A DNA stretch of 64,000 nucleotides from an uncultured Acidobacteriota bacterium (GTDB lineage: Bacteria > Acidobacteriota > Thermoanaerobaculia > Multivoradales > UBA5704), in contig CAVYRF010000002.1 in the NCBI GenBank assembly GCA_963770895.1, positions 3,588,555 to 3,652,554 on the forward strand, in the 5' to 3' direction. The notes under the pieces were generated by a model. It searched no databases. It was not told the DNA's origin and worked only from the letters and a program-made list of their open reading frames with translations. Positions 11,172-36,790 of this stretch are shown one piece after another (positions within the stretch are counted from its first letter, which is position 1; each line of letters begins with the position of its first letter). Position numbers and translations under genes: made by a program.

Positions 11172-11201
11172 TTGACGCAGGTGAATGGATACCGGTAGGC
11201 T
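11172..11201 (+). promoter_or_regulatory. Candidate sigma70-like promoter for the giant surface-protein gene
   Basis: TTGACG (11172-11177), 18-nt spacer, TAGGCT (11196-11201), about 135 nt upstream of the ATG at 11335. Lies in a divergent intergenic region that also holds the inverted repeat TTGCGCC...GCGCAA. Confidence 0.25.
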
Positions 11202-11334
11202 GTATTCCGCTTCAGAGCTGCAGACGCCGGAATTAGCAAACGCGCGGGCGTGGCGCTCGACCGCTGTCGGGAATGTACTCAGCGGCCGGCGCCCTCATCG
11301 TCCGAGGTTCCTTGCTGACCTGCCGGAGGTGATA

Positions 11335-20970: not shown

Positions 20971-21005
20971 CCTCCGGGGCTGGAGCGCAGCCGCCGAGCT
21001 TACCT

Positions 21006-21830: not shown

Positions 21831-22341
21831 CAGGTCAGGGTACCGCCAGGGGCCCGCGGAGCCTGCCGGCGCCAGGCCGAAAATCCTTCCGTTTTCCCCA
21901 CAATTCAGGGACTGCGCGGAGACCTGCCCTGGGGGGGCCGGTCGGCAGGGCCTTTTCGATTTGCAGGCGACCGAGGTGCCGCTGGAGCCGTCGCTGGCAG
22001 TCCGGGGAGGGGCGGATGACGGGAGGGTCCACTTGGCGGCGCTCTGGGGCGAGGCAATGCGGGGAGCCGCTGGCGATACGGCTCACCGCCAAGCCGCTTG
22101 CCGGCCCGCGAGCCCGCAGCGCGACGACAAGGGGAGTCCTCCCGGCGGCCGCCCCGGAGCTGGCCGCAGGGCTGCGCGAGGGCCGGCGCGCCGGCGGCGA
22201 TGCCGGCGATGGGCTGGCGGATGCTCAGGGAGGCGCGGCGGGGCGCGCCGCCTGCTCACCCTGAGCGCGGCGATCCTGGAGGGGACCGGGCGGGAGGGTG
22301 AGCGGGCGGACGAGCCGCCGCAACGGGAGTTTGGGTGGGGT

Positions 22342-23058: not shown

Positions 23059-23388
23059 TCAGGCGCCGGTTGAATTGGCAGGTGGCCGCGGCGGCTCGGC
23101 TTGCGCCACCGTTGGCGGAGCCGGCGGGGGCGCCCAGGCGGCGGGCTGGGCCTGCGCCACGGGCGGAGCCTGCACATAGGGCTGGGCCACAGGTGGCGCA
23201 ATCTGACCGGTGGCCTGCTGCGCCGGGTTGGATTCCGCCTTGTGACCGCCTCCCAGAGCGTCCCTGAAATCGCGGATCGAGGTCCCCAGCCCCTTGCCCA
23301 GCTCCGGCAGGCGCTTCGGGCCGAAGAACAGCAGGGCCAGGCCCAGGATGATGAGCAGGTGCATGGGTTGGAACAGTCCTTCGAACAT
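23059..23388 (-). CDS. tatA: Twin-arginine translocase subunit TatA/E
   Basis: 'MFEGLFQPMHLLIILGLALLFFGPKRLPELGKGLGTSIRDFRDAL' is the canonical TatA TM helix plus amphipathic helix. Pro/Ala-rich tail. Protein is 109 aa. Confidence 0.85.
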   Translation of the reverse strand: MFEGLFQPMHLLIILGLALLFFGPKRLPELGKGLGTSIRDFRDALGGGHKAESNPAQQATGQIAPPVAQPYVQAPPVAQAQPAAWAPPPAPPTVAQAEPPRPPANSTGA

Positions 23389-23709
23389 ATGACCTCCAGG
23401 AAAAGGGCACTTCCCCCTTCACGCCTATTCTGGTCCTGCGGGCGTCCACGGTCAAGCGGATGCGAAAAGCCAGGAAGCCCGGCGGGCCATTCCCGCTGTC
23501 AAGGCAAGTGTAAACAGTGAGCCGCGCGGGCTTGTGGCCCCCGCCGTCGTGGGCAAGCCAGGTGCTTTCGATCCGAACACGCCAGGCTTGCCCTTGCCGG
23601 GCGTGCTTGAGCGTCACCCGCCGGGATGCCGGCGCCGCAGGCGGGTCCGGCGGAGCCCCCCGCGCCTGGGTTGGGTTGGGGGACTCCGCCGGATGTGGGG
23701 GTGGGGCGT

Positions 23710-25617
23710 TTACCGGGGCCGGGACCGGCCGCCGGTGGGAGGAGCGAGCGGCGCGGCAGGGGGCGGCCCGCCGCCGGGCTTGTTGCGCCGGCGCAGGCGC
23801 CCCACGGCCACGCTTCCGAGCAGGGTGAAGAGCGTCGCCAGGCCGGCGCTGCCCAGGGTCGGGACGGCGGCGGGCTGGGTGGGTGTGCCCGGGCCGCCGG
23901 GATTGCCGGGTGGCTGGGGCGGGGTCTGGGCGCTGGAGCAGGCGGTGTCGCCGGCGGCGTCGGTCAGGCAGGAGCTGTTGGCGATCTGCTGCAGTCCGGC
24001 CGGCAGCGGCGCGGCGGCGGTCAAGGCGAAGGTGCGGGTGCCGGAGGCGTCGGCCGGCAGCGGCCCCAGGGCCAGGGTGCAGGTGGCGCCGGGACCGCCG
24101 GCGGCGGGCGAGCAGGTCCAGCCGGGCGAGCTGGCGGCGGCGGCAAAGGCGGTGGCGTCCGGGACGGTTTCTCCCAGGCTGGCGGCGGCGGCGTCCTGGT
24201 CGCCGGTGTTGGCGTAGGCCAGCTGAAAGACCAGGGTGGCGCCGGCGGCCAGGGCCGGGCCGGCGTAGCTCTTGGCGAGCGACAGGTGCGGGTTGCCGTG
24301 GGTGGGCGAGGAGACGCTGGCGCAGACCGGCGCCAGGCCGGCGGCGCTGGCGCAGGCGGTGTTGGCGATGGCGGTGATGCCGGCGGGAAGCGGCGACGCG
24401 ACGGTGACCGCGAAGGTGCCATGGAGCGTGGCGCCGGCTGCGAGGGTACCCAGCGCGTCGGTGCAGCTGGCGCCGGCGGGGCCGGCGGCGGGGACGCAGC
24501 TCCAGCCTGGCGAGCCGGCGGCGTCGAAGGCGGTGGCGGCGGGGACGGTCTCCGCCAGGACGACGCTGCCGGCTCCCTGGTTGCCGGTGTTTTGCACCGC
24601 CAGGTCCCAGGTCAGCACGCCGCCGGGCGCACCGGTGCCCTGGGTGAGCGATTTGACCACCTTGAGCGCGGCGGCGCCGGTGGTGGCGGTGGCGACGCTG
24701 GCGCAGGCGGCGACGGTGGTCGGGCCTTCGCGCACGCAGGCGGTGTTGTTGATCACGCTGACGCCGGCGGCCAGAGGGCTGGCGAGCGTCACCGCGAACA
24801 GGCTGGTGAGCGTGCCGTCAGCGGCCAGGTTGCCGACCGGGTTGCGGCACAGCGCGCCGGGGTTGCCGTCCGGCGCGCAGACCCAGCCGGCGGCGCTGGC
24901 GGCGGCGTCGAAGGTGGTATTGGCCGGCACCGTGTCGACCAGCTGCAGGCCGCCGTCGCCCAGGCCGCTCAGGTCGCGCACCGTCAGGGTGTACAGCAGG
25001 GTCGAACCGGGGGCTCCGGAACCGGCGGCGGTCTTCTGCAGGCTGACGTGCGATGGCGTCGCGGCGCCGCAGGCGGCGGCGCCGGCGCCCTGCGAGGCGG
25101 CGTCGAACGAGCGGCCGTCGGAGGTCGTCGCCTGGGCGGTGGCGGTGAAGGCCGGTGAGGTGGTGGACTCGAAGAGCGCCTGCCAGGTGACGACCACGGT
25201 CCAGCTGTTGTTGTCGAGCGGGTCTGCCGGACAGCTGAAATTGACCGCGCCCGAGGTGTCGCCGGGGCCGTTGCCGCGCGCCACGGTGGGCTGGCAGCCG
25301 ACGGTGAGGTCGTTGTCGATGCGCAGCGTCCCCGGCTGGTAGACCAGACCGCTGGTGCCGGCGCCGGGGATCGTCAGGCTGCCGGTGAGCGCCGGGGTGC
25401 CCGAATCGCGGGTGGCGTAGGTGGCGCTCAGCAGCACCGGCTCGCCGCAGTCGAGGATGCCGTTGCCGTTGACGTCGACGAAGCCGGCGACCGCGACCTG
25501 GAGAGACGGTTGCGCCGCGAGCGGCGGGGCGGCGCCGCCCAGCAGGACGGCGCGGATGGTGGCGCCGCGGGTGCGGCGGCAGGCAGGGGGGGTGGTGGGG
25601 GTGGCGGGTGGGTGCAT
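23710..25617 (-). CDS. Cell-surface protein with four DUF11-type conserved repeat domains and a C-terminal IPTL-CTERM-like sorting signal
   Basis: ATG at 25617 with an AAAGGAGGG RBS. Repeats of 'L-K...G-PG--L-Y-L-V-N-G...V-L-DTVP-...F' are present, for example 'LQKTAAGSGAPGSTLLYTLTVRDLS...LVDTVPANTTF'. C-terminus 'VPTLGSAGLATLFTLLGSVAVGRLRRRNK' has the xPTL motif, a hydrophobic helix and an Arg cluster. Its start lies 26 nt after the parB-like stop. Confidence 0.75.
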   Translation of the reverse strand: MHPPATPTTPPACRRTRGATIRAVLLGGAAPPLAAQPSLQVAVAGFVDVNGNGILDCGEPVLLSATYATRDSGTPALTGSLTIPGAGTSGLVYQPGTLRIDNDLTVGCQPTVARGNGPGDTSGAVNFSCPADPLDNNSWTVVVTWQALFESTTSPAFTATAQATTSDGRSFDAASQGAGAAACGAATPSHVSLQKTAAGSGAPGSTLLYTLTVRDLSGLGDGGLQLVDTVPANTTFDAAASAAGWVCAPDGNPGALCRNPVGNLAADGTLTSLFAVTLASPLAAGVSVINNTACVREGPTTVAACASVATATTGAAALKVVKSLTQGTGAPGGVLTWDLAVQNTGNQGAGSVVLAETVPAATAFDAAGSPGWSCVPAAGPAGASCTDALGTLAAGATLHGTFAVTVASPLPAGITAIANTACASAAGLAPVCASVSSPTHGNPHLSLAKSYAGPALAAGATLVFQLAYANTGDQDAAAASLGETVPDATAFAAAASSPGWTCSPAAGGPGATCTLALGPLPADASGTRTFALTAAAPLPAGLQQIANSSCLTDAAGDTACSSAQTPPQPPGNPGGPGTPTQPAAVPTLGSAGLATLFTLLGSVAVGRLRRRNKPGGGPPPAAPLAPPTGGRSRPR

Positions 25618-25643
25618 GGGTGTACGGTCCCTCCTTTGGGGGG

Positions 25644-26555
25644 TCAGGCGAGGCAGGCGTACAGCTGCTCGACGCGCTCGTCGGGGCTGCCGTGCGGCTG
25701 GCTGCCCAGACGGACCAGCAGCGTGTCGAGCTGCGGCGTGGTGAGCTGGACGGTCAGCGGCTGGTGGAGCCCGGCGGCGACCGTGGGATCCAGGTCGGGG
25801 GCAGGATGGCCGGCGGTGCCGCCGGCAGGGGCAGGGGAAGGATCGGTGGGGGGCGCCGTGGCGGCGGCGAGGTCACTGCCGGCGTAAGCACCGGCACCGG
25901 CGCCGGCGTCGCGCAGCTGGGCGGCGATTTCGATCTGCTGCACCGTGATCGGGCCGCCGGTGCGCCGCGCCAGCGCCAGCAGGCGATTCTGCTGGGGCGC
26001 CGGCAGGCGATCGAACAGGTTGGCGCCCAGGATGCTGGCCAGGAACCCCTCGCGCAGCGCGTCGCCGAGCGGGCCGGTGGCGGCGGCCAGGCGCAGGTAG
26101 TGGGAGCACCAGGCGGGCGAGCGGTGGTGCCGGCGGGCGAAGTCGGTCTTGGTCAGGCCGGAGAGCGCCACGGCGCGGGCGATGGCGCGGGCGCGGTCGT
26201 AGAGCGACAGGCTGCGCCGCAGCTCGCCGTCGTTTTCGTCGAGCTGCAGCATGAGCCGGTCGGACGGCGACAGCGGCTCCTGGCGCACCACGACCGGCAC
26301 CGCCTGCAGGCCGGCCAGCTGGGCCGCCTGCCAGCGGCGGCCGCCGGTGATGATCTGGAAGGGCGTCGTCGCGCGCGCCGCCGGCAGCGGGTGGGGCGCC
26401 ACCAGCAGCGGCTGGATGACGCCGTGCGCCCGCACGCTGGCGGCCAGCGCCTCCAGGTCCGGCCCGGCGATCGTGCTGCGCGGCTGGTCCGGGTCGGGGG
26501 CGATGGCGGACACGGCGACCAGCAGGGCGCCGGCCGGCGCGGCGGGAGCGCTCAA
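25644..26555 (-). CDS. ParB/KorB-like protein (ParB N-terminal domain plus HTH)
   Basis: 'HGVIQPLLV...ITGGRRWQAAQLAGLQAVPVVV' carries the ParB/Srx GxRRxxAA box. 'LTKTDFARRHHRSPAWCSHYLRLAA' is the ParB HTH. A 4-nt overlap with the trbI stop places it inside the trb operon. Confidence 0.75.
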   Translation of the reverse strand: MSAPAAPAGALLVAVSAIAPDPDQPRSTIAGPDLEALAASVRAHGVIQPLLVAPHPLPAARATTPFQIITGGRRWQAAQLAGLQAVPVVVRQEPLSPSDRLMLQLDENDGELRRSLSLYDRARAIARAVALSGLTKTDFARRHHRSPAWCSHYLRLAAATGPLGDALREGFLASILGANLFDRLPAPQQNRLLALARRTGGPITVQQIEIAAQLRDAGAGAGAYAGSDLAAATAPPTDPSPAPAGGTAGHPAPDLDPTVAAGLHQPLTVQLTTPQLDTLLVRLGSQPHGSPDERVEQLYACLA

Positions 26556-28297
26556 GGAGGGCCTCCCTGGGCGGAGGAGCCGGCCGCCTGGCGCGGCGTG
26601 CCGGGCAGATCGGCGGTGACGAAGACAAAGAAGGGCGTGCCGGCGGGCACGCGCAAGGTCGGCTGCACGGCCAGGTCGCGGCGCACCAGCTCCAGGCCGA
26701 CGCTCGACAGCTCCTGGCCCAGGGCGGCGGCGGCGACCTGCTGGCTGCTGGGCGCCGTCGCGAAGCCGCTGGCCGCCGGCTGCGACAGCTGGGCGCCGGC
26801 GCCCAGCAGCGACAGCAGCACGGCATCGCCGAACACCCGCCGCAGGTGGTTGTCGGTCTGCGCCGGCAGGCCGGCGGCGCCGGTGGCGTCGGCGGCGGGC
26901 AGGCCGGCGACTTCGACGCTGCCGCCGTCGGCGAACAGGAAGCGGGTCCAGGCGACCAGCAGGCGGTTCTGGCCGGCGGCGACCTGGTCCTGGTAGCGCC
27001 CCAGCAGGCGGGTGCCGCGCGGGATGACGACCTGTCGCAGGGTGCCGTCGTAGACGTCGCGGCTGACCTGCGCCAGCAGCGGCCCGGGCAGACCGGAATC
27101 GACCGCCGTCAGCAGGGTCGCCGAGATCAGCGTCCCCGCCGCCACCGTCCCGCCGGCGGCCGGCGCGCGGTAGCGCACCGCGAGCGGTTCGCCGCCTGCC
27201 GGGGGGTGCCCGGCCAGCGCCTCCCAGCGCGAGCCGCCAGGACTGCCGCTGGCGGCGGCGCTCGCTCCGGCGCCGGGTCCGCCGCCCGCTCCGGCTCCGA
27301 TGCCCGCTCCGGCACCGCCGGCACCGCCGGCACCGCCGGCTTCAATGCCAGTTCCGGCTCCGATTTCTGCTCCGCCACCGGCGCCTGCTCCGGCGGCGCC
27401 CGCGGCGTCCGCCGGCCGGCGTGGCGGGCTGCCTCCTTCACCGGCGCCGCCGGTGACCGGGCCGACATTCGGGGGCGCCGGCGGGGCTGCCGCGGCGTCT
27501 GGCCCTGCGGCATCGCCACCTGCGCGGCCCTGGCTTCCGCCGCCGGCGTCCCCGCCACCGTCCCCGCGGCTACCCCTGCCGCCATCCCAGCCTTCGCTGG
27601 CCGGGAACCAGCGGCCCTGCCGTGGCGCACCCTGAGCGGCGCCGATCGCGATCGCCAGCGGCGAGCGCAGGGCGCGCTGGAAGGCGGCGCGGGGGCTGCC
27701 GGGCGGTTCGCCGGTGCCAGTCGTGGTTGCAGTTGCGAAGGGTCCGCCGCCGGCCCCATAAGCTTCCGCGCCGCCCTGTCCGCCGGCGCCTGCCTGGGCG
27801 GTGCCGGCCGCGCCGGCCGCCGCGTTGCGATCGCCGCCGGGCGCCTGCAGCAGGCGCATCAGGCGGGCGGTTTCGGCCGCCGCGGACGGGTCGGCGCCCT
27901 GAGCGTCGCCGGCGCCATCGACCGCGCCGGTGCCGCCTGCGGCACCGATCCCGGCGCCGGCTCCGGCGGCACCAGCGCCGGCGGCTCCGGCCCCGCCTCC
28001 GGCGGCCAGTCCAGCCGCGATCGCCGCGGCAGCATCGCCGGCGCCCGCCGGCCGCCCGGCCACGGTGCCGGGAGCCAGGCGCAGGAAGCCGGGGGCGCCG
28101 CCTTCGAGGCGTTGCGCCAGCGCCAGGCCGGTCGCCCGCGGCGGCGGTGGCGGCGCGGCCAGGAAGACCGCCGCCAGCAGGGTGACGATCAGGATGAGCG
28201 CCGCCACCAGCAGCACGGCGCGGTTGAGCCGCCGTACGGTGTGGGACAGGATGGGCGGCACCTTGGACGGCAGCGGCGAGCCGGAAACCGGGTCCAT
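26552..28297 (-). CDS. trbI: Conjugal transfer protein TrbI (VirB10 family)
   Basis: N-terminal TM anchor, a ~300-aa Gly/Ala-rich low-complexity linker, and a C-terminal TrbI/VirB10 domain ('LISATLLTAVDSGLPGPLLAQVSRDVYDGTLRQVVIPRGTRLLGRY...NRLLVAWTRFLFADGGSVEV'). Confidence 0.85.
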   Translation of the reverse strand: MDPVSGSPLPSKVPPILSHTVRRLNRAVLLVAALILIVTLLAAVFLAAPPPPPRATGLALAQRLEGGAPGFLRLAPGTVAGRPAGAGDAAAAIAAGLAAGGGAGAAGAGAAGAGAGIGAAGGTGAVDGAGDAQGADPSAAAETARLMRLLQAPGGDRNAAAGAAGTAQAGAGGQGGAEAYGAGGGPFATATTTGTGEPPGSPRAAFQRALRSPLAIAIGAAQGAPRQGRWFPASEGWDGGRGSRGDGGGDAGGGSQGRAGGDAAGPDAAAAPPAPPNVGPVTGGAGEGGSPPRRPADAAGAAGAGAGGGAEIGAGTGIEAGGAGGAGGAGAGIGAGAGGGPGAGASAAASGSPGGSRWEALAGHPPAGGEPLAVRYRAPAAGGTVAAGTLISATLLTAVDSGLPGPLLAQVSRDVYDGTLRQVVIPRGTRLLGRYQDQVAAGQNRLLVAWTRFLFADGGSVEVAGLPAADATGAAGLPAQTDNHLRRVFGDAVLLSLLGAGAQLSQPAASGFATAPSSQQVAAAALGQELSSVGLELVRRDLAVQPTLRVPAGTPFFVFVTADLPGTPRQAAGSSAQGGPP

Positions 28298-28300
28298 GGC

Positions 28301-29479
28301 TCACTCCTCCCTGCCGGCGGCGCCGGCGGCACCGGGGGCGCCGGCGGTGGCGGCCGGGTCGTCTGCCGTCCGCCGGGGGCGCTGGCGGCCGGCCGCGTGG
28401 TTGACGATTTCGAGCTGCTGCCGGTGACCCTTGCCGGCGCCGTCGCCGATCACCAGCACGGCGCGGTCGACGACGCGGTCGGTGACGTAGGCCTGCTGCT
28501 CCAGCCGGTAGTTGAGCAGGGCCAGGGAGCCGTCGGGCTGGGCCGCCAGCAGCGCCGGCGCCTCGGCGTGGCGGGCGGCGTCGGGGAGCAGGATGTAGGT
28601 GTGCTCGCCGTCGTCGAACACCTGCGACGGCGTCCACGGGAAGCCGCGGTCGCGGCGCCAGCGGTAGTCGAAGTTGAGCTGCGACAGCGCGACGCCGGGG
28701 GCCAGCGCGGCCGGCGCCCGCGCCGCGGCGGCGGCGGCCGCGGCCTGGGCCGCCGCGGCGGCGCGCTCGGCGTCGGCCCAGCGCCGCACCAGGTCTTCGG
28801 GGTAGTAGAAGCGCAGCAGGCCGGTGTAGGGCAGGCGTGGGTTGTAGCGTTGCGCGGCGCCGCGCGGTTCGCGGCAGGGCGGCGAATCCAGGCTGACCTC
28901 GTAGACCCGCCGGTCGGTCGCGATCACCAGGTTGGTGCTGACGTCGCACGCGGTCGGCTTGACCAGGACCAGCGGGGTGCGGGCTCCCGGCCCCGACGCC
29001 GCGGTCTGCACCAGCCAGCGTTCGCTGTCGCCGGTGGCGGTGGCGAGCAGCGTTTCGGCTTCCTCCAGCTGGATCGCGCAGGCGCGCAGCGGCGCGCACC
29101 GCACCACCGGCCGGGTGTGGCCGTAGGGCACCAGCACCGTCGCGCCGCCCAGCTCCAGCGACTTGAGGTCCGCCGCGTCGCCGCTGGCGCGCCAGGCGCG
29201 CGTCAGCGCCTCCCCTGCGCCCGCGCCCTGGTCCGCGCCGTCGCCGCCGGCGGCGGATGGCGCCGCGGCGGCGGCCGCGCCGGCGCCCGCGGCAGCGGCA
29301 GGGGCGGTGGGGTCGGAGACCGGGGCAGGGGCGGCGCCGGCGGTCCAGGGGCAGATGAGCAGCACGGCGAGCCAGCAGGCCGGCGCCGGCCACGGCAGGC
29401 GGCGGCGCCGGGAGCGGGCGGCGGCGAGGGCGCCATGGCAGGCGGCGCCGGAGGCGGGGGAGAGGGGCGGGCGGATCAT
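28301..29479 (-). CDS. trbG: Conjugal transfer protein TrbG (VirB9 family)
   Basis: Signal peptide. CagX/TrbG-type motifs ('RFYYPEDL', 'NFDYRWRRDRGFPWTPSQVFDDGEHTYILLP', 'YVTDRVVDRAVLVIGDG'). ATGA overlap with trbF. Confidence 0.85.
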   Translation of the reverse strand: MIRPPLSPASGAACHGALAAARSRRRRLPWPAPACWLAVLLICPWTAGAAPAPVSDPTAPAAAAGAGAAAAAAPSAAGGDGADQGAGAGEALTRAWRASGDAADLKSLELGGATVLVPYGHTRPVVRCAPLRACAIQLEEAETLLATATGDSERWLVQTAASGPGARTPLVLVKPTACDVSTNLVIATDRRVYEVSLDSPPCREPRGAAQRYNPRLPYTGLLRFYYPEDLVRRWADAERAAAAAQAAAAAAAARAPAALAPGVALSQLNFDYRWRRDRGFPWTPSQVFDDGEHTYILLPDAARHAEAPALLAAQPDGSLALLNYRLEQQAYVTDRVVDRAVLVIGDGAGKGHRQQLEIVNHAAGRQRPRRTADDPAATAGAPGAAGAAGREE

Positions 29480-30252
29480 CGCGGGTCTCCCATGGAGAGC
29501 TGCGTCCAGTTGATCTCGGTGACGAACAGGCCGAGCGGGTTGGTGAGGATGGCGGCGGCGGTCTCGGGCGGCTGCTGCTCGACGCGCAGGTAGGCTTCCC
29601 AGGCGGCGGCGCGCGGCGCACCGGCGAAACGGGGGCGCTCGATCTCGCGCCAGCTGACCTTCCAGGTCTGGCTGCGCGGCACCTGCAGCACGGCGGTGAC
29701 GTCGACCTGGCGGGTGATGCCGCGGCCGAGCACGCGCGGGTCGTGGGCGGGATCGGCGAACCAGGCGTCGAGGGTGGCGCGGGCGGGGCCAGCCAGGTAG
29801 GCGTAGGCGTCCAGCAGCCGCACGCGCTCGGCTTCGGGATCGGCGGAGACGGCGCGCAGGTTGCGGATGAGCGCCGCCAGCTGGAACACGGTGACGCGGC
29901 TGTCGCCGCGGCGCAGACGTTCGGCGGGACCGAACGCCAGGGCCTGGCCGAAGCGATCGACTTCGACCACGTAGGGGGTGATGCGCGAGGCGGCGCCCTG
30001 GCGGATGTAGGCGGCCAGGACGCCGGCCAGCAGCGCCAGCAGGGCGAAGCTGACCAGCTGCCAGTTGCGCTTGCCCTTGGCGAGGTCGCCGAAGACGCTG
30101 GCGAACTCGTGGCGCGCGGCCAGGAACGGATTGGCCGCGGGCCGCCGGGCCGCGGCGACGTCCCTGCTGCGATCGGTGCGATCGGTGCGATCGGTGCGAT
30201 CGGGCCGAGCGGGCCGATCGGGGCGGGCGGTGCGAGCGGGCCGGCCGGTCAT
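29476..30252 (-). CDS. trbF: Conjugal transfer protein TrbF (VirB8 family)
   Basis: Single TM ('WQLVSFALLALLAGVLAAYI') followed by a VirB8-like periplasmic domain ('ITPYVVEVDRFGQALAFGP...RVTVFQLAALIRNLRAV'). The ATG is embedded in ATGA overlapping the trbL stop. The ORF-track ORF 29476..31803 upstream of this ATG is out-of-frame noise. Confidence 0.8.
   Translation of the reverse strand: MTGRPARTARPDRPARPDRTDRTDRTDRSRDVAAARRPAANPFLAARHEFASVFGDLAKGKRNWQLVSFALLALLAGVLAAYIRQGAASRITPYVVEVDRFGQALAFGPAERLRRGDSRVTVFQLAALIRNLRAVSADPEAERVRLLDAYAYLAGPARATLDAWFADPAHDPRVLGRGITRQVDVTAVLQVPRSQTWKVSWREIERPRFAGAPRAAAWEAYLRVEQQPPETAAAILTNPLGLFVTEINWTQLSMGDPR
30174..30230. repeat. 9-bp imperfect tandem repeat (~6 units) inside the trbF 5' coding region, encoding (TDR)/(PDR/PAR) repeats
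   Basis: 'gcgatcggt gcgatcggt gcgatcggt gcgatcggg ccgagcggg ccgatcggg' on the plus strand. On the coding (minus) strand it encodes 'ARPDRPARPDRTDRTDRTDR'. Confidence 0.7.
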
Positions 30253-31265
30253 CGCAGCGAGTCCTGGAGCCGCAGGGTGGCGCCCTGGGTGAGCCGCGCC
30301 GCCACCGCCGCCGGCACCCGCCACACCAGCAGACAGAGGATGAGGGCGCCGGCGAGCAGCTGGAAATCCAGCGTCAGCGACGGCGCCGGGGGCTGTCCGC
30401 CGGCGCCGGCCGGCGTCAGGCTGAGCACCACCCACTGCCGCGACAGAGCGGTGCCGACGCCGGCCAGCAGGTACAGCAGGTAGACCCGGACGCCGGTCTG
30501 GAAGGCGTACAGCAGGTAGCCCTCGGCAAAGGGCGCGGTGCCGCGGAAGCTGGCGAAGCCCAGGAACAGCGCCCCGCCGGTGAGCACGATGTAGGTTTCG
30601 ACCAGCGTCATGCAGATCTGCGCCGCGATGCCGGCGTAGGCCAGGACCACCAGCAGCGCCGTCGCCGAGGCCACGATGTTGCCGGTGGGATCGGTGAGAA
30701 AGCCGGCGTTGCCGACGGCGAGCAGCAGGTTGGAGGCGATGGTGATGCCCAGGTCGAGCAGCTGCGACGGGTTGACGGCGGTGGTGCCGGTGGCGCTCTG
30801 GCCGGCCGCCTCGAAGCCGCGGGTGATGGCGGGCACCCACAGCGGGAACAGGTAGATCAGGCTGAACAGGAACGACAGCAGCATGAACTTGCGCAGCAGC
30901 GCCGCCAGCGCCGCGTCCAGGCCGTCGCGGCCGAGCGCCCACCAGATGCCGGACACCGCCAGCTCCAGCGTGGCGAGCAGCGCGAAGGTCCGTTCGGCCA
31001 GCGGCACGATGCGCGCAAGCCAGCCGGCGGCGGCCGTTTCGTAGTCCAGGACCAGGCCGTCCACGACGCCGGCCGCGTCCTGCTGCCGCGGCACCCCCGG
31101 CTCGCCGGCGGCGGCGCCGGCGGCGCGGGCGGGCACAGCGAGCGCCAGCGCCAGCAGCACCACCACTGCCAGCGCCGGCAGCACCGGCAGCGCCAGGCGG
31201 ATCGGGCAAGCTCTCCCCATTGCCGCCGCGCTGGGGCGGCGGGCAGGTCCATGCAGGCTTGACAT
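30249..31265 (-). CDS. trbL: Conjugal transfer protein TrbL (VirB6 family)
   Basis: Polytopic membrane protein with TrbL/VirB6 signature segments ('LLRKFMLLSFLFSLIYLFPLWVPAITRGFEAAG', 'ICMTLVETYIVLTGGALFLGFASF'). Confidence 0.85.
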   Translation of the reverse strand: MSSLHGPARRPSAAAMGRACPIRLALPVLPALAVVVLLALALAVPARAAGAAAGEPGVPRQQDAAGVVDGLVLDYETAAAGWLARIVPLAERTFALLATLELAVSGIWWALGRDGLDAALAALLRKFMLLSFLFSLIYLFPLWVPAITRGFEAAGQSATGTTAVNPSQLLDLGITIASNLLLAVGNAGFLTDPTGNIVASATALLVVLAYAGIAAQICMTLVETYIVLTGGALFLGFASFRGTAPFAEGYLLYAFQTGVRVYLLYLLAGVGTALSRQWVVLSLTPAGAGGQPPAPSLTLDFQLLAGALILCLLVWRVPAAVAARLTQGATLRLQDSLR

Positions 31266-31277
31266 GGCGGCTCCGCG

Positions 31278-32096
31278 TCAGTCGGCCGGCCAGGCGGGCG
31301 GCGTGAAGGTCCAGCCTGGCGAGGCGTTGATGGCGGCGGCGCGGGCGGCGTCGGCGGTCATGGCGCCGAAGGTGGCGCGCGCCTGGGCTTCGCGGTTGAT
31401 CCAGTAGCCGCCGGCGACCGCCTGCAGGTTGGTCTGGACGGCGAGCGCCTGGCGGGTCAGCAGCTGCTCCTGGGCGGAGAAGCCGGCGAGCGTGGTGAGC
31501 AGCTCGAGCGCCTGCTGGTGACCCTGGGTGCCGGCCATCTGGGCGCGGATCGCGGCCAGCAGCTGCTCGCCGGCGGCCAGCTCCTGGCCCTGGCGGGCGG
31601 CGGCGGCGAGGCCGGCGCGCAGGGTGTCGAGCGCCCGGTCGGTCTGCTGCGGGTAGGTGGTGCCGAAGGTCGCGGTCCAGCTCTGCCAGCCCGGATAGGT
31701 GGCGGTGAACTCGCCGCCGGGGTCGGGCAGCGAATAGCCGAGCGACTGCCCCGAGCGCGCCAGCGCCGCCAGGTCGCCCAGCTCGCTCGCCACCTGGCGC
31801 CATGCCGGCGCGTCGAGCTTGCGCAGCGCCTGGAGCTGGTAGCGGATCTGCTGCGCCTGGTTGGCCAGCTGCTCCACCTGCTGGTAGATCTGCAGGGCGA
31901 ACTGCAGGTAGTGGACGTAGTGCCAGTGCGCGTTGAGCGCGATGTGCGCCACGTCGGTCACCGGGATGATCGCCGCCGCGGGCGGCGTCGCGGCGGCCGT
32001 CTGCAGGACCAGCGCCAGGGTCGCCGCGGCGGCGACCGTGCGGCGGCGGCGCGCGGCAGCGGGGGAGGGGGCGGGGGGGCGTGGCAGGATGGTCAT
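31278..32096 (-). CDS. trbJ: Conjugal transfer protein TrbJ (VirB5-like)
   Basis: Signal peptide 'VAAAATLALVLQTAAATP', then a coiled-coil-rich TrbJ-like sequence ('IIPVTDVAHIALNAHWHYVHYLQFALQIYQQVEQLANQAQQIRYQLQAL'). Start at MTILPRPP. 4-nt overlap with trbE. The upstream portion of the 1095-aa track ORF is not in frame with this protein. Confidence 0.75.
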   Translation of the reverse strand: MTILPRPPAPSPAAARRRRTVAAAATLALVLQTAAATPPAAAIIPVTDVAHIALNAHWHYVHYLQFALQIYQQVEQLANQAQQIRYQLQALRKLDAPAWRQVASELGDLAALARSGQSLGYSLPDPGGEFTATYPGWQSWTATFGTTYPQQTDRALDTLRAGLAAAARQGQELAAGEQLLAAIRAQMAGTQGHQQALELLTTLAGFSAQEQLLTRQALAVQTNLQAVAGGYWINREAQARATFGAMTADAARAAAINASPGWTFTPPAWPAD

Positions 32097-34669
32097 CGCG
32101 GGGTCTCCTTCTGGACGGCGGGGGTGGCGGGTGCGAAGCCGGCGGCGAGCCGGTCGTAGAGCGGCAGGTGCGCGGCCAGGCCGCGGCTTTCCAGCCAGGC
32201 GCGCGGCCAGCCGGCGCCGTGGCTTTCGATCAGCTGGCGCGCCTGGGCGATCGCCTCGGGCAGGGTCATGCCCTCGGGGGTGCCGACGAAGGCGAGCGCC
32301 GCCGGGCCCAGGCCCAGCTCGAACAGGCGCGAGCCGCGCGGGCTCTTGAAGTAGTAATCGCGCTTGCGGCGGGCGTGGGCGATGAGGTGGATCTCGGCGT
32401 CGTTGAGGCCCAGGTCCAGGTAAAGGGCGCGGTGGCCGGGCGCGGCGGCCTCGGGGTTGGCCAGCAGGATGCGGGTGGGGCAGCTCTCCAGCAGCACGTG
32501 CCGCGACGGGCTGTCCCACAGCTGCGACAGGCTCTGCGTCGCCAGCACCACGGCGGCGTTCTGCTTGCGCAGGGTGAGCAGCCACTGCTTGATGCGCGCC
32601 GCGAAGGCGCTTTTCATCAGCGGCAGCCAGGCTTCCTCGATCACCAGCAGCGACGGCCGCCCCTGCTCCAGGCGCTGTTCGACGCGATGGAAGAGATAGA
32701 GCAGGACCGGCAGCAGCACGCGGTCGTCCATGTCCACCAGGCGCTTGAGCTCGAAGACCTGGTAGGGGCCGCCGTCTTCCAGGTCGTCTCTCCCGGCGTC
32801 GAGCAGGTGGGCCAGGTTGCCTTCGGCATAGGGGGCCAGAGCGGCCGCCAGCTCGCGCTCCTGCAGCTGCGGCACCAGCTCGGACAGGCGCCGGTGCTGC
32901 CGCGGCTCGGTCGACAGCAGCGCCAGCGCCGCGGCCAGGGCCTGGCGCGCCGGCGGCGTCACCGCGACGCCGTTGACCGCCAGCACACCCTCCAGCCACT
33001 CCAGCGCCCACAGCCGTTCGCCGCGGCGGTCGATGGCGGCGAGCGGTTGCAGCGCCACCGGCTCGTTGACCAGGTCGTAGTGCCGGGCGCCGGCGGCGCG
33101 CGCCAGCAGCCACCCCGAGTAGCCGACGTCGAAGCTGAACGCCTGCGCCCGCGGGTAGCGCAGGAACTGCGCCAGCAGCAGGTTGAGCAGCGTGCTCTTG
33201 CCGGCGCCGGTGCCGCCGACGACCAGGGTGTGGCCGACGTCGTCGTCGTGCAGGTTGAGCCAGAACGGGGTGGCGCCGGTGGTCGCCGCCCACAGCAGCG
33301 CCGGGCTGCGGCGCGGGAACAGCGGCGACGGGTTGTGCGGCAGGCCGGGCCAGACGCTGGTGACCGGCAGCAGGTCGGCCAGGTTGCGGCTCGACACCAG
33401 CGGCCGCCGCAGGTTGGCCCAGCCGTGGCCGGGGAGGCTGCCGCGCAGCGCCTCCAGGGCGTTGACGTCTTCGACGCGGGCGGTGAAGCCGCGGTCGTTG
33501 AGCGCCTTGACCACTTCGGCGGCGTTCTGGTCGGCGCGCGCCGCGTCGCGCTCGGCGACCAGCACCACCGGCGTGTACAGGCAGAAGCGGACGCGGCCGG
33601 AGGCGTTGTCCGCCGCCGCCAGCGCCGCGTCGCGCGCCATGGCGCCGGCGTCCTGATCCAGGAACAGCTCGTCGTCGCGCTCGCGTGCGGCGCTGGGCGC
33701 GGCGCCGTCGCCCACCGTCAGCTCGCGCAGCCAGGAGGCGGCGCCGCGGCGCTTTTTGAACCAGCCCAGGCGGACGCGGGCGATGTGGCGCGCCGCGACG
33801 GCCTGCGACAGCGGGATGATGCGGTGGGAGGCGCGGAAGGCGAAGCCCAGGCCGCCCAGGAAGTCCAGGATGCCGGAGAACGATTCGTGTGGGAAACCGT
33901 GGATGGCGACGATGCGCACCGCCAGGTCGCCCACCCGCGGCATCCAGCCGCCGGCGACCGGCTGGTCGGCGAGCAGCCCGTCCAGCCAGGCGCCGTGGGC
34001 CGGCGCCTTGACCGGGTGGTCGAGGCCGGTCAGGCAGGCGTGCAGGTGGGTGAGCAACTCGTCCGAGCCCAGGCGCACCACCTTGAGATGGGTGGACAGG
34101 CGCCGTTCGAGCTGCGCCGCCTCCGACTGGAAGGTGTCGTGCAGCTCGCTCCAGGCCCGCAGGCCGCCGCCCTGGCGGCCGCGCACGAAGAGGGCCGCCA
34201 GGCGCGAATACAGCTCGCGCGGCGGCAGGTAGGTGGCGGCCAGCACGCTGTCGCTGACGAAGTGGCCTCCCGCCGTCTCGTAGGCGGCGCGCCGCTCGGC
34301 GTCGAGCAGCGCGGTGACCGGGTCGGGGAAGGCCCCCGGCGGCGCATAGCCGAGCGCCGGGCGGCGGCGAAAATCGACGTGGAACATCCAGCCGTCGCCG
34401 TAGGGGAGCAGGGCGTCGTGCAGCTGGGCCGCCAGCGCCTCGAGCTCGGCGGCGGTGGCGGCCGCCAGGTCGGGGCCGCGGTAGCTCCAGGCGGTGAGCA
34501 GCGAGCCGTTCTTTTGCAGCACGGTGCCCGGCGCCACCAGGTGCAGCCAGCCGAGCAGGTCGCACAGGCCGCGCGGCTCGCGCCGGTGCTCGCGCAGGCG
34601 GTCGAGCAGCTGCGCGGCGGCGCCGCCGGCCACCAGGGTCAGCGCGGTTGTGATCGGCGTCAGGCTCAT
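32093..34669 (-). CDS. trbE: Conjugal transfer ATPase TrbE (VirB4 family)
   Basis: Real start at MSLTPITT (34669). VirB4 Walker A 'VVGGTGAGKSTLLNLL'. Walker B / DE region 'LLVIEEAWLPL'. Conserved C-terminal 'ATQSLSQL'. Length about 858 aa. Confidence 0.9.
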   Translation of the reverse strand: MSLTPITTALTLVAGGAAAQLLDRLREHRREPRGLCDLLGWLHLVAPGTVLQKNGSLLTAWSYRGPDLAAATAAELEALAAQLHDALLPYGDGWMFHVDFRRRPALGYAPPGAFPDPVTALLDAERRAAYETAGGHFVSDSVLAATYLPPRELYSRLAALFVRGRQGGGLRAWSELHDTFQSEAAQLERRLSTHLKVVRLGSDELLTHLHACLTGLDHPVKAPAHGAWLDGLLADQPVAGGWMPRVGDLAVRIVAIHGFPHESFSGILDFLGGLGFAFRASHRIIPLSQAVAARHIARVRLGWFKKRRGAASWLRELTVGDGAAPSAARERDDELFLDQDAGAMARDAALAAADNASGRVRFCLYTPVVLVAERDAARADQNAAEVVKALNDRGFTARVEDVNALEALRGSLPGHGWANLRRPLVSSRNLADLLPVTSVWPGLPHNPSPLFPRRSPALLWAATTGATPFWLNLHDDDVGHTLVVGGTGAGKSTLLNLLLAQFLRYPRAQAFSFDVGYSGWLLARAAGARHYDLVNEPVALQPLAAIDRRGERLWALEWLEGVLAVNGVAVTPPARQALAAALALLSTEPRQHRRLSELVPQLQERELAAALAPYAEGNLAHLLDAGRDDLEDGGPYQVFELKRLVDMDDRVLLPVLLYLFHRVEQRLEQGRPSLLVIEEAWLPLMKSAFAARIKQWLLTLRKQNAAVVLATQSLSQLWDSPSRHVLLESCPTRILLANPEAAAPGHRALYLDLGLNDAEIHLIAHARRKRDYYFKSPRGSRLFELGLGPAALAFVGTPEGMTLPEAIAQARQLIESHGAGWPRAWLESRGLAAHLPLYDRLAAGFAPATPAVQKETPR

Positions 34670-35001
34670 GGCGTCGTCGGCAGCGCCGGGTCGGGAGGCG
34701 CGGGCGGCGCGTGGAGCGGCGCGCCGGCGGCGTAGAAGTCGGCGCCGCGCAGGCTGCGCACGTAGAGGTCGGCGACGCGCGGGTCCTTGGCGCACAGGAA
34801 GACGGCCAGGGGGTGGAAGACCAGGGCGTAGAACAGGGCGAGCGCCAGGGTGAGCAGGTGCGGCCCGGCTTCGAACAGCAGCAGGAACACCGCCGCCGCC
34901 TCGAACAGCAGGAACTGCGGCGCGACGCCGGCGTAGAGCACCGGCCGCCACAGCGAGGCGTGCAGGCGCGTCTTGGCCGGGGTGGTGGGCGTCGAGGTCA
35001 T
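34666..35001 (-). CDS. trbD: Conjugal transfer protein TrbD (VirB3 family)
   Basis: 111-aa protein starting at MTSTPTT. 'LHASLWRPVLYAGVAPQFLLFEAAAVFLLLF' is the characteristic VirB3/TrbD hairpin TM region. ATGA overlap with trbE. Confidence 0.7.
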   Translation of the reverse strand: MTSTPTTPAKTRLHASLWRPVLYAGVAPQFLLFEAAAVFLLLFEAGPHLLTLALALFYALVFHPLAVFLCAKDPRVADLYVRSLRGADFYAAGAPLHAPPAPPDPALPTTP

Positions 35002-35023
35002 CGCGCTGGTCTCCGCCGTCTGG

Positions 35024-35386
35024 CTACAGCAGCGCGCCCTGGAAGCCGAGCGCATCCACCAGGTTGACCGCGCCGAGCACGATGGCGACGCCGAACAGCG
35101 CCTGGCCGAAGCGCTTGGCGCCCTGCTCGTGGCTGGTGAACGCCCACATGGCGCCGCCCAGCACGAACGCCAGCGCGGCAATGGTCTTGGCGGTGGGACC
35201 GGTCAGGTTGTCCACCACCACCTGCAGCGGGTGGTTCCAGGGCAGGTCGGCGCCGCCGGTGCCGGCGACCGCCGGGCGGGTGGCGACCGCCGCCGCGGTG
35301 AGGGCGGCGGCCAGCCAGGCGCCGACGCGGCGGGTGACGGCGGTGGTGGCGGTGGCGGGTCTGGCAGGACGGAGCGGTGGGCGCAT
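35024..35386 (-). CDS. trbC: Conjugal pilin precursor TrbC (VirB2 family)
   Basis: 120 aa. Long signal/leader, then two hydrophobic helices ('KTIAALAFVLGGAMWAF', 'ALFGVAIVLGAVNLVDALGF') typical of VirB2/TrbC pilins. Confidence 0.75.
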   Translation of the reverse strand: MRPPLRPARPATATTAVTRRVGAWLAAALTAAAVATRPAVAGTGGADLPWNHPLQVVVDNLTGPTAKTIAALAFVLGGAMWAFTSHEQGAKRFGQALFGVAIVLGAVNLVDALGFQGALL

Positions 35387-35459
35387 GACGGGGTTTCCTC
35401 CGGGGTGGGGTCCAAGGCGGCCGTGGCAGCTGGGCGGTGGTTGGGGAGCGGTGGCGGGC

Positions 35460-36443
35460 TCACTCCGCGGGCAGCGAGCGCAGGCGGTAGGCGGCGCCGT
35501 CGTAGCCGCCGACCGCGGCCACCTCGGTGACGCGGCGCCCCTGGCTGCCGCCGGCGATCATCACCACCATCTGGACGGCGGCGCCGACCAGGTGCGGCTG
35601 CGGGCCGACGCGGTTGCGCTGTGCCAGGCGGTCCAGGCGGTCGAGCGCCGCCAGCGGGTCGTCGGCATGGAGGGTGGCGCAGCCGCCGGGGTGTCCGGTC
35701 TGCCAGGCGTCGCACAGGTCGAGCGCGGCTTCGTCGCGCACCTCGCCGACCACGATGCGGTCGGGCGAGGTGCGCAGCGCCGCCTTCACCAGGTCCTTGA
35801 GCTTGAGCGCTTCGGTGGTGCGCAGCGCCAGGCAGTCGGCGGCCGAACAGCGCAGCTCCACCGTGTCCTCCAGGATGACGATGCGCGCGCGCGGCGCCTG
35901 GCGGGTGATCTCCAGCAGGATGGCGTTGCACAGCGTCGTCTTGCCGCTGCCGGTGCCGCCCGCCACCAGCACGTTGCGGCGCGCCGCCACCGCGTCGACG
36001 ATCGCCGCGTGGTGGCGCCGGGCGAGCACGCCGGCCGTGACGTAGTGATCCAGGCTGTACACCACCGCCGGCGGCTTGCGCAGGTTGAAGCTGGGAGCGG
36101 CGACGAGCGGCGGCACGAACCCCTGCAGCCGCGCGCCCAGGAAGGTCGCGGCCGGCAGCTCCGCTTGCAGCTGCGGCCGCGCCGCATTGATCACGGTGCC
36201 CAGGCCGCTGGCCACGATGTTGAGGAACCGCTGCACCTGGCTGGCGGTGAGCGCCGTGCCGCTGTCGCGGCGGCCGCGGGCGCGGCTGTCGAGGAACAGC
36301 CGGCCGCCCGGATTGACGTAGATCTCGGTCACGTCGGGGTCGGCCATGGCAGCCATCACCGCCGGCCCCACCGCCCGCGCCAGGGCGTCGCAATGGCGGC
36401 GTCCGGGGTCCATGCCGCCTGTCTCCGCGTCGTGCTCGGCCAT
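35460..36443 (-). CDS. trbB: Conjugal transfer ATPase TrbB (VirB11 family)
   Basis: Walker A 'VAGGTGSGKTTLCNAIL'. Asp box 'RIVILEDTVEL'. His box 'GHPGGCATLHADDP'. ATG at 36443 preceded by an AAGGAGG RBS. Confidence 0.9.
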   Translation of the reverse strand: MAEHDAETGGMDPGRRHCDALARAVGPAVMAAMADPDVTEIYVNPGGRLFLDSRARGRRDSGTALTASQVQRFLNIVASGLGTVINAARPQLQAELPAATFLGARLQGFVPPLVAAPSFNLRKPPAVVYSLDHYVTAGVLARRHHAAIVDAVAARRNVLVAGGTGSGKTTLCNAILLEITRQAPRARIVILEDTVELRCSAADCLALRTTEALKLKDLVKAALRTSPDRIVVGEVRDEAALDLCDAWQTGHPGGCATLHADDPLAALDRLDRLAQRNRVGPQPHLVGAAVQMVVMIAGGSQGRRVTEVAAVGGYDGAAYRLRSLPAE

Positions 36444-36450
36444 CCGCGTA

Positions 36451-36500
36451 CCTCCTTGATCGCGGAAGCCATCCTAGACACTATTCTACGAATAGTCAAG
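36451..36500 (-). promoter_or_regulatory. trbB promoter with palindromic operator (reads on minus strand: TTGACT, 17 nt, TAGGAT, then RBS AAGGAGG)
   Basis: Minus-strand sequence 'TTGACTattcgtagaatagtgtcTAGGATggcttccgcgatcAAGGAGGtacgcggATG'. The perfect palindrome CTATTC-GTA-GAATAG sits in the spacer and overlaps the -35 element. The region is locally AT-rich in a ~70% GC genome. Confidence 0.45.
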
Positions 36501-36601
36501 ACTAGTGAGCGAATATATTTGAAGGCAGCCGAAGCCGATGCCGGAACCGCGCCCGGACACGGGGGCCGGGGGGAGGGGTCAATCTGGTCCGCGGGAAATG
36601 C

Positions 36602-36790
36602 GGGTCAGCTCAGGGGGGCGGCCGAGCCGTGGGAGGAGCGGATGAGCTCAGGGGGAGGCCGCCGAGCCGCCGAAGGAGCGGGTCAGCTCAGGGGAGGCCG
36701 CCGAGCCGCCGGAGGAGCGGGTCAGCTCAGGGGAGGCCGCCGAGCCGCGGGAGCAGCGGGTCAGCTCAGGGCAGATAGCCGAGCGCGCGC
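36602..36790. repeat. Tandem repeat array, ~39-40 bp unit, ~4.8 copies, between the sulfatase-like gene 3' end and the trbB promoter
   Basis: Units 'GGTCAGCTCAGGGGAGGCCGCCGAGCCGCCGGAGGAGCG' recur at 36602, 36641, 36681, 36720 and 36759. The last partial unit contains the sulfatase stop codon and final codons (…GYLP*). The array therefore looks generated by reiterated duplication of the gene's 3' end. Confidence 0.8.

Follow-up and report, generated by a model that had tools for sequence, protein, structure and literature searches.

The subject of this analysis is a predicted eleven-gene type IV secretion system (T4SS) operon in a 64,000-nucleotide stretch of contig CAVYRF010000002.1, from an uncultured Acidobacteriota bacterium; the whole 64-kb stretch is called the window throughout, and positions are counted from its first letter. 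We think it probable that the operon is the mating-pair-formation (Mpf) half of a Thermoanaerobaculia Trb/MPF_T conjugative element, stranded between a sulfatase gene and tatA without a relaxase, a type IV coupling protein (T4CP), a TraF-like peptidase or an integrase, and that it is preferably explained as a helper apparatus.

Since the G+C content of the window (65–79%) makes mechanical lists of open reading frames (ORFs) unreliable, genes were called by third-position G+C (GC3) frame analysis, with start-codon context and ribosome-binding (Shine–Dalgarno) sites used to place the starts. Eleven co-directional genes emerged on the minus strand, from 36443 down to 23710, in the order trbB-C-D-E-J-L-F-G-I, a ParB-family gene and a gene for an adhesin-like protein of the CLIPPER(DUF11)/IPTL-CTERM type. 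The chosen starts correspond exactly to the products of an independent gene caller on another contig (120, 111, 858, 272 and 338 aa), and the 303-aa ParB and 635-aa DUF11 proteins are already present as exact sequences in protein records. A preliminary description of this DNA had named the same trb genes in the same order and on the same strand, which the gene calls, Pfam and NCBIfam bear out. It had also taken most junctions for ATGA overlaps; the tight coupling is real, although only four of the eight trb–trb junctions (D/E, E/J, L/F and F/G) overlap in this way, the non-overlapping ones being gaps of 73, 22, 12 and 3 nt. The overlap that it followed into the ParB gene exists at the trbI/parB junction, as TTGA rather than ATGA, and the distance from parB to the adhesin gene measures the 26 nt it had given.

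The trb products, all encoded on the minus strand, could be assigned as follows. TrbB, a VirB11-type ATPase (35460..36443, 327 aa), scores 333.8 bits against TIGR02782 TrbB_P (cut-off 304.55) and matches Pfam T2SSE; its Walker A motif, GGTGSGKT, is intact and the start is preceded by an AAGGAGG ribosome-binding site. The VirB2-type pilin TrbC (35024..35386, 120 aa) matches Pfam TrbC with 62.3 bits, and VirB3-like TrbD (34666..35001, 111 aa) matches Pfam VirB3 with 28.9 bits against a gathering score of 23.9 and aligns pairwise with an annotated proteobacterial VirB3-family protein (E = 3e-4). TrbE, the VirB4 ATPase (32093..34669, 858 aa), matches Pfam CagE_TrbE_VirB, TIGR00929 (430 bits) and, over its full length, PRK13873 of NCBIfam (745 bits, below the 1020-bit equivalog cut-off); its Walker A motif (GGTGAGKS) is also intact, and it is ~41% identical to annotated proteobacterial TrbE. 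For VirB5-like TrbJ (31278..32096, 272 aa) the evidence is syntenic position, a match to TIGR02780 TrbJ_Ti (69.4 bits, E = 3e-19) that falls below the cut-off of 100.55, and pairwise similarity to an annotated proteobacterial TrbJ (E = 3e-5); it is the only trb product without a Pfam match. VirB6-like TrbL (30249..31265, 338 aa) reaches 137.5 bits with TIGR02783 TrbL_P (cut-off 128.85) and 78.1 bits with Pfam TrbL. The remaining three are VirB8-like TrbF (29476..30252, 258 aa; Pfam VirB8, 124.9 bits), VirB9-like TrbG (28301..29479, 392 aa; Pfam CagX, 136.7 bits, and TIGR02775 TrbG_Ti, 152.8 bits) and VirB10-like TrbI (26552..28297, 581 aa; Pfam TrbI, 163.4 bits over residues 384-564). TrbC, TrbD, TrbF, TrbG and TrbI all exceed their Pfam gathering scores. 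A Trb model is the best NCBIfam match for every trb gene, in agreement with the families first proposed, with TrbB_P and TrbL_P above their cut-offs and the matches of TrbE, TrbJ, TrbF, TrbG and TrbI below theirs. A VirB4 ATPase, equivalog-level TrbB and TrbL, a pilin, VirB3-, VirB8-, VirB9- and VirB10-like proteins and an ICE-type gene order (ICE, integrative and conjugative element) together identify the predicted module as a P-type (Trb, MPF_T) mating-pair-formation apparatus. TrbI owes its 581 aa, compared with ~430 aa in proteobacterial TrbI, to a Gly/Ala-rich low-complexity linker of ~320 aa, and a 9-nt tandem repeat in trbF (30168-30243) translates into a series of DRT repeats at the N-terminus of its product. 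A VirB7-like lipoprotein hidden in the N-terminal extension of TrbG was considered and dropped, the signal peptide of its orthologue in a related element (L001) being without a cysteine.

The edges of the unit are well marked. Between 22.9 and 36.9 kb only two sigma-70-like sites were found, compared with 0.2 expected from shuffling; one lies 28–56 nt upstream of trbB and the other upstream of tatA. The first of these, a promoter-like site at 36471..36520 on the minus strand, consists of a -35 element TTGACT, a 17-nt spacer and a -10 element TAGGAT with the motif TTCGCTCAC upstream, and forms the left edge of the conserved unit: motif and -35 element are kept in the window and in three related loci (L012, L011 and L002), while the sequence further upstream is unrelated. 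The 9-nt motif TTCGCTCAC itself, immediately 5' to the -35 element, occupies 36505-36513. In the full element L003 its reverse complement GTGAGCGAA and a near copy, TTGGCTCAC, are found at ~8150-8190, upstream of trbB, and the motif may represent an operator half-site. At the right edge, ~15 nt past the adhesin stop codon, stands a terminator-like G+C hairpin without a U-run (23646..23693, minus strand; minimum free energy -45.9 kcal/mol, z = -4.3 vs shuffles), and the first ~27 nt after that stop codon are common to the window and L011. The conserved unit therefore spans ~36520 to ~23686, or 12.8 kb, and we infer that its eleven genes are transcribed together. An Rfam scan of the window gave no matches. 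The G+C content of the trb genes is 75.9% overall, compared with 70.3% for the rest of the window, and their GC3 (0.85–0.97) matches that of the host.

Scans with TrbE recovered at least eight genome loci and at least 11 metagenome loci, and the TrbE homologues place the window in the Thermoanaerobaculia (Acidobacteriota), where about 40 proteins are 73–86% identical, with a second tier of 55–60% identity in Gemmatimonadota and Acidobacteria. Two of the related loci, L001 (on a 319-kb contig) and L003 (on a 2.98-Mb contig of an Acidobacteriota metagenome-assembled genome, MAG), are full elements in which the genes run TrwC relaxase, VirD4-type T4CP, Y4bO-like gene (present in L001, not detected in L003), sigma-70 family gene, S26 peptidase, trbBCDEJ, an extra gene, trbLFGI, ParB and CLIPPER/IPTL-CTERM; in L019 a sigma gene and an S26 peptidase precede the same trb-parB-adhesin operon. 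The window shares with these three the operon itself, TrbE at 77–78% identity and, for L001 and L003, a pilin whose mature part is 93% identical. It differs in lacking the relaxase, T4CP, Y4bO-like, sigma-70 and S26 genes upstream of trbB and the extra ~200-290-aa gene between trbJ and trbL, and in having a ParB of 303 aa and an adhesin of 635 aa where theirs measure 433–514 and 880–940 aa. The presence of relaxase, T4CP, sigma and S26 genes directly upstream of the same operon in relatives indicates that the module stems from a family of conjugative elements.

The TrbE tree groups the window with L012 (98% identical) and places L002 (86%) and L011 (85%) as the sister of this pair; none of these four loci has DNA transfer and replication (Dtr) genes beside trbB or the extra trbJ–trbL gene. 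Elsewhere in the family the position upstream of trbB is occupied by anti-phage-type genes: SIR2 and patatin genes beside a T4CP remnant of 116 aa in L027, TIR, CHAT-nSTAND1-TPR and methylase genes in L026, TIR in L015 and a type I HsdR in L013. The Thermoanaerobaculia MAG SMAG_U6239 contains at least three separate Trb loci or fragments (L006, L008 and L010), some of them at contig breaks or truncated; in L010, trbE is cut after ~160 residues and followed by NA37 and an integrase. Multiple, decayed Trb copies per genome seem to be common.

The transfer functions themselves were sought in several ways. Pfam scans of every plausible ORF in the 64 kb found no relaxase, T4CP, integrase or SLT/lytic transglycosylase domain. 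A hidden Markov model (HMM) built from 115 T4CPs and run without filters gave a best E value of 0.28 against the six-frame translation of the window, compared with 744–848 bits on controls, and it still detects the 116-aa fragment in L027 (72 bits). With the last 493 residues of the L001 TrwC-type relaxase as query, tblastn likewise returned nothing in the window, and ARAGORN predicted no tRNAs in it. The preliminary description had reported the window to be without a VirD4/TraG-type coupling ATPase or relaxase, a VirB1 transglycosylase, an integrase or a tRNA boundary, and in all of this it was right; TrbH and TrbK, which it also listed as missing, are indeed absent, but this is no peculiarity, as trbBCDEJLFGI without trbK and trbH is the standard ICE-type layout of Tn4371/ICEMlSymR7A (PMC2789088). 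No R388-type nic core was found with up to three mismatches, which is a weak test. For the 5.83-Mb source chromosome no T4CP of this family appeared among the 120 best matches to the L001 T4CP (at least 46% identity) or among ten multi-member clusters; this is a weak negative. T4CPs from contigs with full elements (319094, 134036, 118360, 33569, 30935 and 2979791 bp) do appear in the same lists. Finally, the TraF-like S26 peptidase of the full elements is absent beside the pilin gene of the window. No relaxase occurs within the ~23 kb and ~27 kb of flanking sequence, or ~15–20 ORFs per side, which makes the locus a MOBless T4SS, though the original definition of that class spans 60 ORFs.

Whether the missing genes simply lie further away can be judged from loci that lack the operon. 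Three trb-free loci, L024, L025 and L029, share the order AF_1845, MFS, Beta_helix, glycosyltransferase/methyltransferase fusion (GT/MT), sulfatase, small gene, BBP2, Aq_1264_TM, h217, a variable segment, tatA, Nramp and h117. On the minus strand of the window the order is AF_1845, MFS, Beta_helix, GT/MT, sulfatase, the trb block, tatA and h117; the Nramp gene that separates tatA from h117 in all three trb-free loci is missing. On the trbB side the flank is the sulfatase gene (36766..38094, minus strand; Pfam Sulfatase, 165.6 bits), whose orthologues in the three trb-free loci are 67–74% identical. On the other side is tatA (23059..23388, minus strand; Pfam TatA_B_E, 54.8 bits), which has its own promoter-like site and is kept, promoter included, in the same three loci. 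The interval first proposed for the system, 23059-36600, must be shortened at this end, its first 330 nt (23059-23388) being this conserved chromosomal gene. The content of the segment between h217 and tatA differs from genome to genome (h469/h103/LytTR in L024 and L025, h562 and a GT1 gene in L029, the trb block in the window and L002), and this segment is, on the comparison of gene orders, a variable chromosomal slot. In L002 the trb promoter follows directly after BBP2-Aq_1264_TM-h213, which is the same slot.

In the window the homology to the empty sites gives way, after the sulfatase stop codon, to a 39-nt tandem array of 4.7 copies (36589..36771, no strand assigned; Tandem Repeats Finder score 273) and then to the trb promoter. 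The array is no part of the T4SS; it is present in L012 and absent from the empty sites L024 and L025, and its unit is similar to the final ~30 nt of the sulfatase gene with the stop codon. It is possibly the scar of a deletion that removed h111-BBP2-Aq_1264_TM-h217. The identity of the Beta_helix protein was tried as a host clock for distinguishing vertical inheritance from independent insertion in the window and L002 and was set aside, as this gene evolves too fast (60% between L024 and L025, compared with 94.5% for MFS).

The same flanking order in three trb-free genomes means that the island ends within ~70 nt of trbB and ~30 nt after the adhesin gene, which leaves no room for a Dtr module. 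This bears directly on the idea that the operon is one module of a large, functional ICE with its relaxase, T4CP, integrase and att sites beyond the 64-kb window. ICEs can exceed 100 kb, and the family's modules can be separated, since the slot upstream of trbB holds defence cargo instead of Dtr genes in L013, L015 and L026. Against this, both flanks are chromosomal and in conserved order, no mobile-element gene occurs in the flanking 23 kb and 27 kb, there is no tRNA, and direct repeats shared by the two island junctions do not exceed 10 nt, which is chance level (null mean 9, maximum 12). We regard a functional ICE of this kind as highly improbable. The two alternatives of the preliminary description are separated by the same result: a large ICE with its Dtr module outside the window is refuted by the flank order in L024, L025 and L029, while a chromosomal T4SS without Dtr genes fits it and may, as that description proposed, have been domesticated for taking up or releasing DNA or for exporting effectors.

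Evidence that the stranded operon has been kept comes from comparison with L012, which shares the junction of sulfatase, array and promoter with the window; the loss of the Dtr genes thus predates the split between the two. Across seven concatenated trb genes (2280 codons) the two loci differ by 102 synonymous and 60 non-synonymous changes, where ~276 of the latter would be expected under neutrality (dN/dS 0.22, Fisher p = 4e-21), and there are no frameshifts or stop codons. Synonymous divergence per trb gene (dS 0.046–0.088) is similar to that of the flanking sulfatase gene (0.063). For individual genes dN/dS is 0.09–0.15 in trbB, trbD and trbE and 0.25–0.29 in trbJ, trbL and trbF, compared with 0.16 in the sulfatase gene. 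Between the window and L011 the value for 11 concatenated genes is 0.37, with the highest figures in ParB (0.58) and the adhesin (0.65). A dN/dS of 0.22 without disruption since the split from L012 indicates that the relaxase-less module has been maintained by selection.

These figures are also what tells against regarding the operon as a functionless, decaying ICE remnant that looks intact because the transfer genes were lost recently. The losses of T4CP, relaxase, S26 peptidase and integrase are as such a remnant would show, decayed conjugative systems are common and short-lived (PMC9185392, PMC3158045), and relatives in visible decay exist, namely L010 with its truncated trbE and L002, which is truncated and invaded by insertion sequence (IS) elements and a group II intron. 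In L002 (13300-22400), the closest non-strain relative occupying the same slot, trbL is truncated, and the sequence beyond it holds a HisKA fragment, an integrase fragment, two transposase genes, a group II intron reverse transcriptase and a NikA-like gene. In the window, however, nothing is disrupted in any of the eleven ORFs or their ribosome-binding sites, in the promoter or in the Walker motifs, the junction without Dtr genes is older than the L012 split, non-synonymous changes are far fewer than neutrality predicts, and trbB, trbD and trbE are as constrained as the housekeeping-like sulfatase gene. A mere remnant is accordingly a quite unlikely explanation.

The two genes that follow trbI deserve separate attention. 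The ParB-family gene (25644..26555, minus strand, TTG start) encodes 303 aa that match Pfam ParB_N (68.8 bits) and TIGR00180 (85.2 bits, cut-off 58.45), with an N-terminal CTPase-type domain carrying an arginine-rich GGRRWQAA motif and a helix-turn-helix region. Its residues 4-209 align with ParB/Spo0J/Noc structures in the PDB (E 1e-16 to 1e-11) and more weakly with KorB (8qa8, 4e-5). The island contains no ParA-like gene, and a parS/operator search in the island for near-perfect palindromes with 8-nt arms conserved in relatives returned only GC-rich palindromes of coding sequence. The idea that the 303-aa protein is truncated was rejected, as its C-terminal ~35 residues align with those of longer family members (L015), which places the length difference in the linker. 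The protein would be an operon-intrinsic DNA-binding regulator or handler, most likely acting on DNA in a KorB-like control of the operon.

The last gene (23710..25617, minus strand) encodes an adhesin-like protein of 635 aa with three stretches matching Pfam PF01345 (DUF11/CLIPPER, 70.7 bits). Its architecture comprises a signal-peptide-like N-terminus, a weak GEVED-like region, three CLIPPER repeats and a tail made up of VPTLG, a transmembrane helix and RLRRR; the IPTL-CTERM score is 19.3 bits against a cut-off of 20.8, and the orthologues in L001 carry a weak PF18203 match. DUF11, now renamed CLIPPER, is a CnaA-like domain with isopeptide bonds that forms part of the stalk in fibrillar adhesins (PMC12617251), which suggests that the operon's own predicted adhesin could stabilise mating pairs. 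ParB and CLIPPER genes come after trbI in every one of the eight loci that continue beyond it (the window, L001, L003, L011, L015, L019, L026 and L027) and are therefore ancestral members of the parent Mpf operon, not local additions. We know of no description of a ParB-family protein and an isopeptide-stalk adhesin as fixed members of a Trb operon.

The function of the machine is predicted from sequence, and its history and use would be as follows. The operon of the conjugative parent would have been stripped of its Dtr genes and left in the variable sulfatase–tatA slot before the window and L012 diverged. It would still build a Trb envelope channel and pilus, with the isopeptide-stalk adhesin on the cell surface and the ParB-family protein on DNA, in KorB-like control of the operon. 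Without a coupling protein the system cannot recruit DNA on its own, and so the island is not self-transmissible. Our preferred proposal is that it would serve mobilizable elements equipped with a relaxase and a coupling protein of their own as a helper mating apparatus; a close second would be retention for cell contact mediated by pilus and adhesin.

That second use borders on a different explanation, in which the T4SS has been exapted for a non-conjugative job that needs no coupling protein, whether as a pilus/adhesin organelle, for export of periplasmic substrates or for DNA uptake or release. Purifying selection after the Dtr loss and fixation on the chromosome in a syntenic slot speak for it, as does the failure to detect a same-family T4CP for the source chromosome, which is a weak negative confined to the matches and clusters listed. 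Specialised T4SSs without a T4CP are moreover known from Bartonella (Trw), Bordetella (Ptl), Brucella (VirB) and H. pylori (ComB). An adhesin gene in the same predicted operon (PMC12617251) points the same way, but the adhesin and ParB genes were inherited from the conjugative parent instead of being newly recruited, and the adhesin, which has a signal peptide and a sorting tail of its own, could be exported independently of the T4SS. Nor is any effector, toxin, immunity or competence gene linked to the operon, and the small sub-clade has four known members, one of them broken. Exaptation is, in our judgement, unlikely. We would give a similarly low chance to its most specific form, in which the lineage domesticated the Mpf half as a surface organelle made of the Trb pilus/channel and the isopeptide-stabilised adhesin, working without a coupling protein, regulated by the ParB-type CTPase and kept by selection on the host for cell–cell contact, biofilm or contact-dependent exchange and not for transferring the element.

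Several points weigh against the stranded helper apparatus that we favour. A divergent T4CP or relaxase elsewhere on the 5.83-Mb chromosome, or a T4CP falling in another cluster, is possible. TraF of RP4 is needed for pilin maturation, and the loss of the S26 peptidase may by analogy impair pilus assembly unless a peptidase is encoded elsewhere. It is not obvious that a host should be selected to keep a helper apparatus from which other elements benefit. The dN/dS values were obtained by the NG86 method, which is approximate in a genome with GC3 above 0.9. Lastly, transposases, an integrase fragment and a group II intron interrupt the sister copy in L002, which means that at least one lineage can dispense with the module.

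Beyond the island, Pfam assigned the other ORFs of the window to an ABC transporter, giant surface proteins, an MFS transporter, an ankyrin protein, an S9 peptidase, an extracytoplasmic function (ECF) sigma factor and MsrPQ-like genes. The GT/MT gene beyond the sulfatase (38136-42854, minus strand) encodes a 1572-aa fusion of two GT4 glycosyltransferase modules and a methyltransferase domain; its orthologues range from 1102 aa without the methyltransferase (L024) to 1490–1551 aa, and it is only 56% identical between genomes whose neighbouring MFS proteins are 77–95% identical. On the plus strand, opposite to trb, lie genes for two giant secreted proteins, one of 1597 aa (11185-15978) with CBM96, Glucodextran_B, Big_13 and CarboxypepD_reg domains and one of 1348 aa (16924-20970) with LVIVD, Big_7, TSP3_bac and CarboxypepD_reg domains. 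The ~1.4 kb from the second of these to h117 (20971-22340) match nothing in Pfam, and no ORF there has a coding signature that convinces.

Relaxase-less T4SSs are common in environmental bacteria, but hardly any has been traced to its origin or assigned a role. In the present case the sequence reveals the conjugative family of the parent, the exact insertion slot, three empty sites and selection after the loss of the transfer genes, which makes this locus a clean case for asking what an Mpf-only machine is kept for. If the apparatus is used in trans, it would also bear on the spread of mobilizable elements in soil Acidobacteriota.

Of the systems already described, the modules of the Tn4371/ICEMlSymR7A type have the same layout: the gene order without trbK and trbH is theirs (PMC2789088), and the window exceeds the cut-offs of the P-type equivalog models for TrbB and TrbL. 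In the closest annotated comparator, Hydrogenophaga pPBL-H3, which MOB-suite types as MPF_T, the genes run traG-copG-trbBCDEJ-x-LFGI. The proteobacterial modules differ in that their TrbE is only ~41% identical, traG lies immediately upstream, a DUF2274 gene follows trbI and no ParB or CLIPPER adhesin gene belongs to the operon; they also sit in elements with an integrase, a relaxase and traF. As a category the locus belongs with the MOBless T4SSs of Guglielmini et al. 2011, which occur in ~18% of genomes and have fewer neighbouring integrases than ICEs (PMC3158045), and with which it shares a VirB4-containing cluster, no relaxase nearby and a place on the chromosome of an environmental bacterium. 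That category is operational and includes systems that keep their T4CP (PMC3158045), whereas the present locus is also without one. In addition, it can be traced to a conjugative parent family, and both the slot of insertion and the corresponding empty sites are mapped.

Bartonella Trw, Bordetella Ptl, Brucella VirB and Helicobacter ComB are T4CP-less specialised systems that have kept the envelope-spanning core, and the window resembles them in having no VirD4-type coupling protein and a retained VirB/Trb core. They are, however, VirB-type systems of host-associated Proteobacteria and Campylobacterota with known substrates or amplified pilin genes, whereas this is a Trb-type operon from a free-living Acidobacteriota lineage without linked substrate genes. 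KorB of the IncP plasmid RK2 is a ParB-family CTPase that represses trb and other operons, and in both cases a ParB-family protein is genetically tied to a Trb system; the KorB structure 8qa8 is among the matches already given. The window protein nevertheless stands much closer to chromosomal ParB/Spo0J/Noc (E ~1e-16), is the product of the tenth gene in the trb operon itself and is unaccompanied by korA or incC (parA). The class of relaxase-less T4SSs is thus known and common; what is new is a Trb-type member without a T4CP, in the Acidobacteriota, with a ParB-family protein and a CLIPPER adhesin built into its operon.

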